Below are positions 19,886 through 55,357 of a stretch of DNA of 64,000 nucleotides, in pieces (position 1 is the first letter of the stretch; each line of letters begins with the position of its first letter). The notes under the pieces were generated by a model. The model ran no database searches and had not been told where the DNA came from. It saw only the letters and a list, made by a program, of their open reading frames with translations. The position numbers and the translations under genes were made by a program. This DNA is from Malacoraja senta (lineage: Eukaryota): positions 12,774,001 to 12,838,000 of the forward strand of contig CM075990.1 of NCBI GenBank assembly GCA_038087875.1, written 5' to 3'.

Positions 19886-20497
19886 GGTACACAAAAATGC
19901 TGGAGAAACTCAGCGGGTGCAGCAGCATCTATGGAGCGAAGGAAATAGGTAACGTTTCGGGCCGAAACCCTTCTTCAGACTGATAGGGGGTGGGGAGAAG
20001 AAAGGAAAAAAGGAAAAGGCGGAGGAGGAGCCCGAGGGCTGGGGGAGGGGAGGAGACAACCAGATGGCTGATGAAGGGGAGGGGACAGCCAGGGCTAGCA
20101 GAATTGGGAGAATTCAACGTTCAGGCCACCAGGATGTAGACTGCCCAAGCGGAATATGAGGTACATTTCCTCCAATTTACGGTGTTGCTCGCTGTGGCCA
20201 TGGAGGAGACCCAGGACAGAGAGGTCAGATACGGAATGGAGGGGGAGTTGAAGTGCTGAGCCACCGGGAGTTCAGGTTGGTTATTGCGGACCGACCGGAG
20301 GTGTTCGGCGAAACGATCGCCAAGCCTCCGCTTGGTCTCACCGATGTAGATCAGCTGGCATCTAGAGCAGCGAATGCAATAGATGAGGTTGGAGGAGATG
20401 CAGGTGAACCTCTGTCGCACCTGGAACGACTGCTTGCGTCCTTGAATGGAGTGGAGGGGGGAAGTGAAGGGACAAGTGTTGCATCTCTTGCGGTTGC
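19886..20497 (-). mobile_element. Penelope-like retroelement 3' fragment with GIY-YIG endonuclease
   Basis: NLIYCIRCSRCQLIYIGETKRRLGDRFAEH; TSD AATCATCA at 19878-19885 and 20498-20505. Confidence 0.92.
19947..19983 (-). ncRNA. Minimal type-I hammerhead ribozyme motif, sense to the hnRNP pre-mRNA
   Basis: Minus strand reads TCAGT-CTGAAGA-AGGGTTTCGGCCC-GAAA-CGTTACCT. Confidence 0.72.
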
Positions 20498-22240
20498 AAT
20501 CATCATGTGGGTTGGGTGCATCAGAACATCAAAAGACTAAACTGGGATTAAATCATGATTATGGTGGAATTAATGCCCTAGAGATTGCTTAATACTTAAG
20601 GAATCAAAAAGCATTTGTACAAATTCTCCCATAGATAAGCTTAACAGTGCATTTATGGTTTTTGTTTCCAACTATGGTGCACAGTAATAAGAAGAAAATC
20701 TAGTGTGATGAGTTATGTTCAGAGATTTTTTATGATATGGCATATAAAGAAAACTCCTAGATTAAAAAGTAATCATCCATTTTAAAGAAACCCTCAAAGA
20801 TTTTAGGAGATGCTTATTTGCTGGCCCTGCAAGCGGATTTGGAGAACTTTACAAATATAGGGCTGTGCTACTTCTTACAGTGCTCTGAGATGTCTGCTGC
20901 ATGGCTCCAGAGCCAGGTCAAGAACTAGAAACACACATTTTTCCCTCAGGCTATGTTGACACACTGAAGATAATGATGAATTTTATCAGCATGAATGCCT
21001 GCCTTTGACGAGAGATGGTTCCTGGGATATCAGAAGTGCAACGTGTTTTCTGGGGTCTCTTTATAGCCCTTTAACATTGGACATCGTTGAGGCAAGTTAC
21101 CGAATGAAGTAAATATAAAAGTGCAGAGAATAAGATAACCATTACAAAAAAAAAACACTAAAACTGGCAGGGATTACATTATAAAAACAGCTATCCAACA
21201 TGGTTCCAAAAAAAAATGTAGACCTTTGTCGAAAGTCACTTCAATATCCCTGCTACTAGAGAATGTAAGCAGCTTCGATCAGGGTTCAACTGCACATTCA
21301 TTTCACTGCCAACCTCAGACCAGAGCAGAAGGACAAAACTATTTGCAGTGCAAATTCCAAGGAATAAAAAAATATTTATATTTTTCTACATTATTGTAAA
21401 TTTTCATCATCCATGCACACTTCTATGGAACACAAAATGTATCAATATTTACAAGAAGAATAAATACTGAACAATCACTATTTTGGACTCACATTTCAAT
21501 CACATTTGTCTAACGATAGAAAAAAACCTATGAAACCTAGCCTGGTGAAAAATCAGAATTAATAAAAAGCTGAAGATGCTGGAAATCAGATTTATAAATA
21601 GAAAATGCTGGAAATGTCAGCATGTCAGGTAGAACCTGTGAAAAGAGATATTGTGCGACGTGCTTGGCGTTTGAGCATTTTCTCTTTAAGTTCAGCTTTG
21701 AAGGCCTTGGATCAACTCATAACATTTTCACTTAAGGAACTAGCATGTCCAAGTCCTTCTCCAGAAGTCCAAACACAAATATCTAGGGTGACATTTAAGT
21801 TTGGTACTGAGGGAGTAAGTACCGTGTGGTCGGAGACAACTTAAAAGTTGTTAAACCAAGGCATTGGTTGCAGTTCTAGTTGAATGATCAGTGCCACAAT
21901 ATCACTGATACAACAGTGGGGTGATTAACAACAACTAACTAGCAACAGAGGCAGGTAGACAAAAATGCTGGAGAAATTCAGCGGGTGAGGCAGCATCTAT
22001 GGAGCGAAGGAAATAGGCAACGTTTCAGGCCGAAAGCCTTCTTCATTCAGGACCAATAATCTGACATATAATCTTAAATTTCCACACAGGCAGCTCTGCA
22101 ACTAAATGAATCTGAATTTTCAAAAATCTGGTATAATTGCCTGTAAACATAAACCCACTAGATGGTCAGATCATACCCCATTATTCACATGTCCATCTGA
22201 AAAGGAAATCTGCCAACCTTACCTGGTACCTGCATTTCTC

Positions 22241-31152: not shown

Positions 31153-31363
31153 TTTATTGTATTTTGTTAGATAGTAAGTTGATTGGGAGACCCGTTATGT
31201 CAGACGTGAAACAATCTCATTTGCAGCAAGCAACACATCATCTAGTTTAGTACAAACAGCAAACAGATATCACAGGCTGGGTTTACTTCACAGCAGATTA
31301 TTTCATCGAAGCTTATAACAGAATCCAGTGCAGAGTCTCTGAGTTTTAGTCAAACTATTTATT
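31153..31363 (-). terminator. Candidate polyadenylation signals for the SEC24-like gene
   Basis: AATAAA on the minus strand at 31363-31358 and 31158-31153, in unique sequence beyond the 3' insertion. Confidence 0.4.
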
Positions 31364-32034
31364 CAGTAAACCACAATGAACTTCTAAGAAACCTGATAAG
31401 ACTGAATGAGCAGCAAATATTCCACATGTAAGGGTGAGGGTTCCATACTTGACATCTTCTGCCATCCTTATTTCATTCACTTAGCTATCCATTCAGTTGA
31501 AGATTAAATAGGTTTTATACACAAATCTGAAAAAAACTTCTTGCATATATACTTAAAGTGTTTTCTACTTGATTTCAAAGGCTCCATGATTAAAATACAA
31601 TCCACGAGCTTCAAACAAAAAAATAAAGAAATTAGAGTTTTGGAGTCTTTGTGCCTTCAGCGGCCAGCCAGAGGTGAACCAGTCATCACTGGAGCCATTG
31701 AGGAGATTGCTTTCATACCTTGTTCAAGAAGGAACTGCAGATGCTGGAAAATCGAAGGTAGACAAAAGTGCTGGAGAAACTCAGCGGGTGCGGCAGCATC
31801 TATGGAGCGAGGGAAATATGCAATGTTTCGGGCCGAAACCCTTCTTCAGACTGATGTAGGGTGGGAAGAAGAAAGGAAGAGGAGGAGCCAGAGGGCTGAG
31901 GGAGAGCTGTGAAGGGGAGGAATCCGACCTTACTGTTCTGGGCCTCCTCCATGGCCAGAGTGAACACCACCGGAAATTGGAGGAGCAGCACCTCATATTC
32001 CGCTTGGGCAGTTTACACCCCAACGGCATGAACA

Positions 32035-33416
32035 ATAGACAATAGACAATAGACAATAGGTGCAGGAGTAGGCCATTCAGCCCTTCGAGCCAGCATCGCC
32101 ATTTAATGTGATCAGGCTGATCATCCCCAATCAGTACCCCGATCCTGCCTTCTCCCCATATCCCCTGACTATTTTTAAGAGCCCTATCTAGCTCTTTCTT
32201 GAAAGCATCCAGAGAACCTGCCTCCACCCCCCTCTGAGGCAGTGAATTCCACAGACTCACAACTCTCTGTGAGAAAAGGGTTTCCTCATCTCCGTTCTAA
32301 ATGGCTTACTCCTTATTCTTAAACTGTGGCCCCTGGTTCTGGACTCCCCCAACATCGGGAACATGTTTCCAGCCTCTAGCGTGTACAAACCCTTAACAAT
32401 CTTATACGTTTCAATGAGATCCCCTCTCATCCTTTTAAACCCCAGAGTGTACAAGCCCAGCCGCTCCATTCTCTCAGCATATGACAGTCCCACCATCCCT
32501 GGAATCAACCTTGTAAACCTACGCTGCACTCCCTCAATAGCAAGAAGGTCCTTCCTCAAATTAGGGGACCAAAACTGCACACAATACTCCAGGTCGGAAT
32601 GGTACCATTCGGCGCCGCCGTTTCGGGGTGTTAGGGTTAGGGTTAGGGTTAGGGTTCTGATGAGTACAAATATTATAAACGGAGGCGCCGAAACGGCAGG
32701 GCCGAAAAGTACCCGACCCACTCCAGGTGTGGTCTCACTCACTAGGGCTCTGTACCTGCAGAAGGACCTCTTTGCTCCTATATTCGACTCCTCTTGTTAT
32801 AAAAGCCAACATGCCATTCGCTTTCTACACTGCCTGCAATACCTGCATGCTTACTTTCATAGACTGATGAACAAGAACCCCCAGATCCCGTTGTACTTCC
32901 CCTTTTCCCAACTTGACACCATTTAGATAGTAATCTGCCTTCCTGTTTTTGATACCAAAGTGGATAACCTCACATTTATCTGCATTAAACTTCATCTGCC
33001 ATGCATCAGCCCACTCCCCTAACCTGTCCAAGTCACCCTGCATTCTCATAGCATCCTCGTCACAGTTCACACTGCCACCCAGCTTTGTGTCATCTGTAAA
33101 TTTGCGAATGTTACTTTGAATCCCTTCATCCAAATCATTGATGTATATTGTAAATAGCTACGGTCCCAGCACTGAGCCTTGCAGTACCACACTAGTCACT
33201 GCCTGCCATTCTGAAAGGGACCCGTTCATCCCTACTCTTTGTTTCCTGTCTGCCAACCAATTTTCTACCCATGTCAGCACTCTACCCCCAATACCATGTG
33301 CCCTAATTTTGCCCACTAATCTCCTATGTGGGACCATATCAAATGCTTTCTGAAAGTCCAGGTACACTACATCCACTGGCTCTCCCTTGTCCATTTTCCT
33401 AGTTACATCTTCAAAA
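32035..33416 (-). mobile_element. CR1 LINE 3' part (RT) nested in the Penelope-like element
   Basis: VDVVYLDFQKAFD, FTDDTKLGG, YCVQFWSP; (CTATTGT)n tail; the host PLE sequence CATGAACATTGAC is split at AACA. Confidence 0.92.
32592..32719. mobile_element. Small MITE-like insertion carrying (TTAGGG)4
   Basis: TSD ACTCCA at 32586-32591 and 32720-32725; imperfect TIRs GGTCGG.../...CCGACC. Confidence 0.8.
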
Positions 33417-33529
33417 AACATTGACTTAATTTCCGGTAATCCTTATTGGCTCCTCCCCTTCTCAGCTCTCCCTCAGCCCTCTGACTCCTCCTCTTCCTTT
33501 CTTCTTCCCCCCCCTACCCACCCTACATC

Positions 33530-33563
33530 AGTCTGAAGAAGGGTTTCGGCCCGAAACGTTGCC
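33530..33563 (+). ncRNA. Minimal type-I hammerhead ribozyme motif in a Penelope terminal repeat (representative copy)
   Basis: AGT-CTGAAGA-AGGGTTTCGGCCC-GAAA-CGTTGCC: CUGANGA core, stem II, GAAA, palindromic ACGT. Confidence 0.75.
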
Positions 33564-33632
33564 TATTTCCGTCGCTCCATAGATGCTGCCGCACCCGCTG
33601 AGTTTCTCCAGCACTTTTGTCTACCTTTGCTT

Positions 33633-33741
33633 TCATACCTGCTCCTTCAGGTGAAGCAGAAATTCATAGTAGGACATTGCTGATTCAGTGCGGTCATTGA
33701 TCAGATGCTGGATGAATATGGACCGTGAAGTACTGTCATCC
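33633..33741 (-). CDS. SEC24A/B-like last coding exon (DDSTSRSIFIQHLINDRTESAMSYYEFLLHLKEQV*)
   Basis: Conserved DRTE..SYYEFLLH C-terminus; TGA at 33635-33633. Confidence 0.96.
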
Positions 33742-34866
33742 CTGTCGAAGAAAGGCCGGCAGAATTAATCCATGGCATTGCTTAACTATTCCTGAATTGT
33801 CAAACACTCCAATATCTGGTCGTCAACATCACAGGGTGAAGCAGACAGTATTATTATCACTTACAGTACACGAGGCAACAGATATTTTGATGTTAAAATC
33901 ACCGTAGAAATGCATGGTTTGTTGAATTTCGGCTCATTTGTGCTTCTGCTGATGCTGTGACAGAGTTCGGGACGGCCATTCTCATGCTCTTTTCCCACAT
34001 TTCCTTTAAACTTATTCTTACACTTTACAATGAAATCTGCTTTCAGCACGTGAGGAGGGCACGGCCGTTTACCAACTAAAAGAAAATTCTCACCTCCTCT
34101 TTGCTTCTTTTACCTTTCATCACAAACCTGTGACCTTTGGTCCCTATACTCCAACCATTAGAAGTAGTTTGTCCTTATTTACTCTGTGAACAATTTCATA
34201 GTTTTAAACACTTCCCACCGATTGCCCCTTCAAGGGAACAAAGCATGCTTGCCAGTCTTTCAACATACAATGTAAAGAGACACTATTTGTCCTCTGTCTA
34301 TCCCTTGCACTTATCGCACGTACATTGTAGCTGCCATACACTGAAGTTGATAACACTGACATTTCTAATGCAACCTTATATATTACAGTATTTCCCATTG
34401 ATAACTGATGATGCCACCTAATTTGCAGTGGAGATTGTAGTAATTTTCCCAACTGAATGTTTATAATCCCTTTCCAACCTACTTCACCTCATTTCATCAG
34501 CGCCATATCCTGTTCTAACTCTTGTGCTTCCCCAAAAGTGTATTCAAGAAGAAGAAATGTAAAAGTAAGATTATTTTCTGAAGAAGGGTCGCGACCCAAA
34601 AGGCCACCTATCCTTTTTTCTCAGAGATGCTGCCTGACCCTGAAGATGTGCCTATCTTCGGTGTAAACCAGCATCTGTAGTTGCTTCCTACAATCATTGT
34701 AACATAACTGAGGTTCCTCATTACTGCAATCATATTGGTAGACTCCTCTGCATCCTCCACAAGGCTTTGACCTCCCCAAAGTGCTCCAGAATTACATATT
34801 AAAGCCTGAATGGGGCCGATAAAGAATGCATTTAATTTCCTTGCTTTTGTTCTCTATAAAGCCTAA

Positions 34867-51931: not shown

Positions 51932-52055
51932 CTATAGATGCAAGGTCCGTATACTGCTGGCTCAGCAGGAATAGGTCCACCCCTGTCTGCTGTCCACAAA
52001 ACTCAAGTGCAAGCACTTTGTAGAAATTCATAGCTGACCCCAAGTGCTTAGCTCC
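51932..52055 (-). CDS. SEC24A/B-like exon (GAKHLGSAMNFYKVLALEFCGQQTGVDLFLLSQQYTDLASI)
   Basis: FYK.LAL, VDLFLLS and DLAS motifs; G|GTGAGT donor; 124 nt. Confidence 0.94.
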
Positions 52056-55024: not shown

Positions 55025-55357
55025 TTAGACCTGCTATTATTCTCCGTACTCGCCTAAACTTCTGATTCCATCAGGTAAGAAATTTTAAAACAACGTGAGA
55101 TCATGCAAGCACTTTCTAGTGTGTGAGGCACAGATGGTCAACAGTCAAGATTTAATGGCATAAGTCAATGAAGGAAGAAGTGATTAAGTATTATGGAAAG
55201 ATGGTATAGAGCAGACTTATTTTCTTGCATGGAGTGTAAACACAATGAGCTGGATGGGCTGAATAGCCTGATTCTGTGTGAACATAACTACAATATACAA
55301 TTGTAATTTGGTAATAAGAAACATTGCATGATCTTATGAGGACAAGAATTGTCATAC

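Follow-up and report, generated by a model that had tools for sequence, protein, structure and literature searches.

Elements of the Alu type have a pyrimidine-rich end that offers a cryptic 3′ splice site, and their inverted repeats form long double-stranded RNA in untranslated regions. Insertions of Penelope-like elements (PLEs) are characterized by 5′ truncation, an inverted 5′ copy that gives terminal inverted repeats, a tail of 30 to 40 bp at one end, a GIY-YIG domain, and a minimal-hammerhead-like motif in the pLTR (PMC8557442, PMC11167929, PMC4209133). Intron gain through transposon insertion at AGGT proto-splice sites is a long-established model (PMC3443670). Introners recruit splice sites from target site duplications (TSDs) in many ways (PMC9860276) and include about 5% non-LTR cases, vertebrates being said to lack recent gains (PMC12130899). 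In the supplements of the latter study, files 13 and 14 excluded, the two skate genomes covered have 0 introner families, and no Penelope element is found. Intron gain is nevertheless not absent from vertebrates, since a human survey counts 342 recent gains (PMC12124190).

In the 64,000-nt stretch of Malacoraja senta DNA analyzed here (the window), the insert at the stop codon of a SEC24-like gene is a Penelope-like retroelement that is truncated at its 5′ end, carries an inverted 5′ piece, and has a 35-nt tail; a CR1-like LINE and a mini-element of 125 bp entered it later. It is a lineage-specific gain of a PLE at that stop. With Alu-type 3′UTRs it shares a pyrimidine-rich candidate 3′ splice site and predicted inverted-repeat double-stranded RNA, and it differs from them in being Penelope-like and in deriving both arms from one insertion. 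The likeness to Penelope/Poseidon-type EN+ PLEs extends to the truncation, the inverted copy, the one-end tail, the C-terminal GIY-YIG, and, as a putative pattern match, the minimal-hammerhead-like motif, whereas the insert is a dead fragment of ~520 nt that harbors two nested elements and whose TSD lies over the host stop. As in the AGGT model, the TSD doubles AG/GT, so precise excision is possible; in contrast to it, splicing here is only putative, the site is at a stop so that retention is harmless, and the TSD acceptor is an AAG behind stronger AGs. Like introners, the insert is a transposable element with inverted ends and a TSD able to provide either both splice sites or just the donor, but introners are families of many similar spliced introns (PMC9860276, PMC12130899), while the insert is a single candidate site with no AGGT bias. 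The element belongs to a known kind and is intron-like only on paper, neither its acceptor nor its family behaving as those of introners do.

The SEC24-like gene before and after the insertion

The part of the SEC24-like gene inside the window is intact: its 15 exons (61184 to 33633, minus strand) translate into 635 codons, and the only stop is at the end. The last exon matches the C-terminus of Sec24A/B in PDB, the nearest named proteins are Sec24A/B-like and come from skates, rays, and sharks, and the other match to this exon in the genome is 57% identical. These sequence comparisons suggest a cartilaginous-fish SEC24A/B-like paralogue as the host gene. Upstream of exon 48833-48675, in the intron, part of that exon recurs as a diverged duplicate at 51167-51075. 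Downstream of the SEC24-like gene, also on the minus strand and from about 24900 to 200, lies a gene with RRM-like exons that we take to be hnRNP A/B/D-like.

Among 15 homologues, the C-terminus reads EQV in 4, all batoid, and VCK in 10, all from sharks, with one shark model diverging. Because the EQV stop is common to the 4 batoid proteins, the stop and the donor-like CAG/GTATGA are older than the insert, and creation of the stop codon by the insertion is ruled out. Compared with sharks, batoids have lost two C-terminal residues through an earlier stop. The shark gene model P0016 exits the last exon directly after KER, which corresponds by homology to the site of the latent donor, and gains 56 residues; this exit may be a prediction artefact.

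The TSD AGGTATGAAAGCAA (gene strand) is 14 nt long and exact, occupies 33640-33627 and 31720-31707 with its copies 1920 apart, and can be extended on neither side. The original prediction had placed it over the last codon GTA and the stop TGA, which agrees with our finding of an exact repeat inside the last coding exon, and had likened CAG/GTATGA to a real donor of the gene; the exon chain indeed contains the identical donor after exon 55413-55358 (at 55357). Our computation likewise reproduced its proposal that splicing from 33638 to 31719 would take out 1920 nt; the protein would then still end in V and stop. The locus is laid out in Table 1.

Table 1. Features of the SEC24-like last exon and of the insert (window positions; gene sense is the minus strand)
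Feature	Position	Strand	Basis
Last coding exon, SEC24A/B-like, ending in LHLKEQV and stop	33633..33741	-	PDB Sec24A/B matches; skate, ray, and shark homologues; open exon chain; joined to exon 37130-37027 in a contig of relative D
TSD copy 1, keeping GTA TGA and the latent donor CAG/GTATGA (GT at 33638-33637)	33627..33640	-	single copy at the empty site in 4 relatives
Inverted 5′ piece: pLTR and last ORF codons; minimal-hammerhead-like motif at 33533	33417..33626	+	sequence comparison, pattern search
Nested 5′-truncated LINE fragment, gene sense: RT, (CTATTGT)4 tail, possible 4-bp duplication AACA, ATTAAA at 32107	32035..33416	-	Pfam RVT_1
Mini-element of 125 bp nested in the LINE: imperfect inverted arms, ~4.5 telomere repeats, 9-bp duplication	32595..32719		sequence repeats
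Remainder of the inverted Penelope piece: end of the C-terminal GIY-YIG ORF	31922..32034	+	81% to window copy, 82% to full-length copy L086
Forward Penelope 3′ end, gene sense: pLTR and tail 31755-31721; all candidate acceptors; decayed minimal-hammerhead-like motif at 31849	31721..31921	-	exact matches to the 34-nt end at 1,249 sites
Best candidate 3′ splice site TTTTCCAG/C (AG at 31744, exon from 31743), branch-like CTGAG with A at 31781 (-38)	31743..31784	-	matrix and motif; weaker AGs before 31770 and 31734
TSD copy 2, supplying the exact acceptor AAG/G (exon from 31718)	31707..31720	-	sequence repeat
Ancestral 3′UTR	31219..31706	-	contiguous with the stop in a spliced contig of relative D

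A run search with 33600-33800 (201 bases, 18 words) gave 24 runs among the matches listed, two of them from the carrier (organism A) with all words and the relatives B to F with up to 0.72 of them; eight of the 24, none from organism F, were examined for the empty site. No RNA run of organism A was among the 24 listed, which carries no information on expression. The empty site is present in related species: position 31706 is joined straight to 33627 in single DNA contigs of relatives B (1249 nt), C (1114 nt), and E (577 nt), and in relative D the match of a 1948-nt spliced contig begins precisely at 33741, where the exon starts, and extends to 31219 with the same join. A second contig of relative D joins exon 37131-37026 to 33740. 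The joins in relative D are those of spliced mRNA, and we guess its runs to be RNA. The insert is thus absent from all four relatives examined (B, C, D, and E), and their single TSD copy shows that the duplication is not due to chance. In the spliced contigs of relative D, CAG/GTATGA is read through and not used as a donor. The non-coding and mixed flanks of the relatives differ from the window by 3.1-4.4%, and the ancestral 3′UTR has an AATAAA at 31363, a further one standing at 31158, just past the end of the relative D contig.

In the carrier, contigs reach 23 nt (runs X1 and X2) and 26 nt (X2) into the insert, which is below the 31-letter bridging bar, and no empty-site piece occurs among the matches listed; as the two organism A runs may moreover be the source of the assembly, this only hints that the insertion is homozygous. 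Raw poly(A) RNA of relative B, which is without the insertion, had zero depth over the last two exons (run X22, ~6/100 of the run) and is hence uninformative.

Anatomy and age of the composite insert

The insert had been described as one transposon. It is a real insertion, but its 170-bp terminal inverted repeat and its composite nature (Penelope, CR1, and mini-element) had been missed. On the gene strand, a TSD is followed by the inverted Penelope piece, interrupted by the LINE with the mini-element inside it, then by the forward Penelope 3′ end, the 35-nt tail, and the second TSD. The ORF remnant is 81% identical to a GIY-YIG copy at 20124-20528, which clears the Pfam GIY-YIG cut-off, and 82% identical to the end of the 1200-aa ORF of the full-length copy L086, in which RVT_1 (E 2.9e-6) precedes GIY-YIG (E 0.0014), both slightly below the Pfam cut-off. 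This ORF has a pLTR on either side, and the tail there extends to the start of the open frame. The family displays these features of EN+ PLEs: GIY-YIG C-terminal of RT in one ORF, a partial tandem pLTR, an inverted 5′-truncated copy, and a 30-40 bp tail at one end. The open Penelope-like frame of L086 (942-4544), lying between two pLTRs, suggests recent activity of a subfamily related to the insert.

The inverted arms of the insert differ by 5 mismatches in 166 core columns and by one 10-nt gap, and the 35-nt extension 31755-31721 sits on one arm only. Assuming that the arms were identical at insertion, their divergence gives the insertion an age that is a substantial fraction of the time since the relatives split off; it is not fresh. 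The layout of TSD, inverted piece, and tail recurs in many of 30 family loci, with TSDs of ~13-17 bp where clear, several of these loci being duplicates and some having no clear TSD. A DNA transposon with TIRs is ruled out, because an inverted pLTR with a tail on one side makes up the arms and the TSDs of the family have this length. The pattern CUGAnGA-stem-GAAA was found in both arms, with a broken palindrome in the gene-sense copy; Rfam gave 5 weak matches, none at the gathering score and no hammerhead.

The nested LINE, presumably CR1-like, has its best other genome copies at 96% identity. With up to 1 mismatch allowed, its junction with the PLE is unique in the genome. The nesting therefore most likely took place at the SEC24-like site, and movement of the composite as a single unit is ruled out. 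From the nesting, the CR1-like fragment and the mini-element would have come after the Penelope insertion. The mini-element also carries a CTGATGA motif, and its core has one other exact genome match (L072), where the telomere tract is longer.

Several further observations concern the family. A GIY-YIG fragment 100% identical to the window copy is found 37.5 kb before it (G000:C14:12756651-12757055), and this pair reflects duplication, either a recent segmental one or one made in assembly. At many loci (L033, L034, L036, and 13 more; L004, L012, and others), the sequences flanking short PLE copies are identical; these copies represent PLE insertions carried by other repeats. The inverted 5′ piece often starts with AGGTAGAC (33626-33616), a weak second donor (5/9), which together with TTTTCCAG near the 3′ end gives family copies a crude GT...AG layout of their own.

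Splice signals, predicted RNA structure, and the fate of the insert

The latent donor CAG/GTATGA matches the consensus at 7 of 9 positions, level with the gene's best donors. Acceptors were scored with a matrix built from the gene's own 15, a small set that penalizes AAG and gives a leave-one-out natural range of 0.4-12.6 bits. In addition to the exact acceptor, the original prediction had listed the sites at 31743 and 31734, with alternative tails that our translation confirms; a fourth in-frame AG, at 31771, had escaped it. Exons starting at 31770, 31743, 31734, and 31718 score 6.7, 8.8, -1.4, and 1.0 bits (ranks 5, 3, 42, and 16 of 200 AGs), so that TTTTCCAG falls inside the natural range, and an AG internal to the LINE, at 32863, outscores it. 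A TNA branch-like motif at -15 to -45 accompanies 15/15 natural acceptors and, among the candidates, only 31743. Since this motif is loose and usually present by chance, its absence is the informative part, and it is absent from the exact AAG, which has AGs 14, 25, and 52 nt upstream and a pyrimidine tract of 10/16. Measured against the 15-acceptor training set, the exact acceptor thus falls short in branch point, pyrimidine tract, and position as first AG. One real AAG acceptor is used in the SEC24-like gene, at 52055, with 65 AG-free nucleotides before it.

Hairpins can hide splice signals or draw splice sites together. In the predicted fold of the 2-kb region, the two Penelope arms pair into a duplex of ~170 bp (-343 kcal/mol); the branch-like CTGAG is paired with a probability of 1.0 and the tract of 31743 with 0.85, while its AG is predicted to be mostly unpaired (0.29). 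Pairing is also predicted across the donor and the AAG, imperfectly and with lower reliability, and the folding ignores co-transcriptional protein binding. By covering CTGAG and the tract, the predicted hairpin lowers the odds of the 31743 product and leaves the AAG product still unlikely.

We also asked whether AGGT at family ends exceeds chance. Of the 13,374 occurrences of the family tail, 67 have AGGT next to them, compared with ~54 expected from the composition of the window; 16 of the 30 loci fetched from these 67 have a flank in common, being copies of a single composite repeat. A target preference of the family for AGGT is ruled out by these figures, and the family does not repeatedly make splice-compatible ends. 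AGGT is found on a given strand in ~4.5% of 14-mers and with a good donor continuation in 0.2%. The AG/GT coincidence at the SEC24-like site is therefore at chance level, and such a layout is uncommon per insertion yet expected somewhere among thousands of copies. Across the empty sites of those 30 AGGT loci with a detected repeat, a rough ORF check, too coarse to identify exons, gave a longest frame of 92 aa.

The original prediction saw in this locus a possible intron in the making. Its exact TSD geometry and the lineage-specific gain stand: the insertion is absent from orthologues, and the TSD supplies both GT and AG. The sequence speaks against the exact AAG acceptor, in view of its missing branch-like motif, its rank, and the better AGs upstream. 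For 1920 nt to be spliced predominantly from GT 33638 to AAG 31719, so that the ancestral mRNA is restored, is accordingly a very improbable outcome, even though the geometry fits the AGGT model (PMC3443670), the gene uses an AAG acceptor elsewhere, and the duplex could mask the signals of the upstream AGs and so favor the distal one. Besides the poor tract and the three earlier AGs, coding function exerts no pressure to splice, family ends show no enrichment of AGGT, and the 34-nt tail of the insert is unchanged from its family form, which has little power as evidence. Judged from sequence features, the precise-intron reading is weak and unproven. We would give equally little credence to its mechanistic version, in which a Penelope retroelement gave rise to a precisely spliced intron at a vertebrate stop codon, its hairpin masking upstream acceptors and juxtaposing the TSD-derived splice sites.

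If splicing happens, the 31743 product is likelier than that of the exact AAG. Activation of the latent donor and its splicing to TTTTCCAG in an appreciable share of transcripts would skip the stop, add a C-terminal tail of 28 residues, and amount to an imprecise intron gain. This site ranks third, is the sole candidate with a branch-like motif, and has an AG predicted to be mostly unpaired; from each of the three upstream AGs, the reading frame ends at a last-exon stop, so that no NMD would be expected, and shark model P0016, itself a prediction, exits the exon at the homologous position. The outcome is nonetheless unlikely, given that its branch point and tract lie inside the predicted duplex, that a LINE-internal AG scores above it, and that the donor is unused in the relative D contigs. 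Transcripts might instead end in the insert, near the LINE 3′ end, at the ATTAAA at 32107, which is in gene sense and is the sole strong-type poly(A) hexamer within the insert. The downstream acceptors and the old UTR would then rarely be present in mature RNA and the protein would be unchanged. We consider such early ends about as doubtful as use of 31743, ATTAAA being a non-optimal hexamer with an only putative downstream element, and both ancestral AATAAA signals being still intact; they would be compatible with an unspliced insert.

What we favor, as the probable state of the locus, is an unchanged SEC24-like protein with the 1.9-kb insert kept mostly unspliced in the 3′UTR. A truncated Penelope-like retroelement entered at the last codon, its 14-bp TSD restoring the stop and leaving the protein unaltered; the insert would have stayed in a longer 3′UTR, and the CR1-like fragment and the mini-element would have followed it. 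In the mRNA, the Penelope arms are predicted to fold and bury the only good branch point and pyrimidine tract. Effects, if any, would be expected on the mRNA level or its 3′ end, by editing of double-stranded RNA, retention, or earlier polyadenylation. Since TSD copy 1 keeps the stop, survival of the insertion needs no splicing, and it likely survived as cost-free for coding rather than through being spliced. The empty sites, the donor read-through in relative D, the weak AAG acceptor, the buried CTGAG, and the near-chance AGGT frequency all support retention, as does an anatomy that agrees with other family copies and with described PLE insertions (PMC8557442). This reading is weakened by a donor equal to the gene's real ones, preceded by a stretch of 103 nt, the size of an internal exon; by the score of TTTTCCAG; by the real AAG acceptor at 52055 and a matrix that penalizes AAG; and by the possibility that the hairpin juxtaposes splice sites rather than hiding them.

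Implications for Penelope-like insertions in skate genes

No Penelope-derived intron was found in the literature searched, which included few subscription papers and no bioRxiv supplements, and no relevant paper on skate Penelope elements was among the matches listed. At present, the locus represents an ordinary, well-dated retroelement insertion that survives beside coding sequence since its TSD copied the stop. If precise removal were true, the locus would record a vertebrate intron gain whose date and parent element are known, with close relatives preserving the empty site and an RNA-structure mechanism that can be tested. As the 3′ end of this Penelope family always bears a fair acceptor, skate genes that contain copies of it in gene sense are candidate sites of cryptic splicing.
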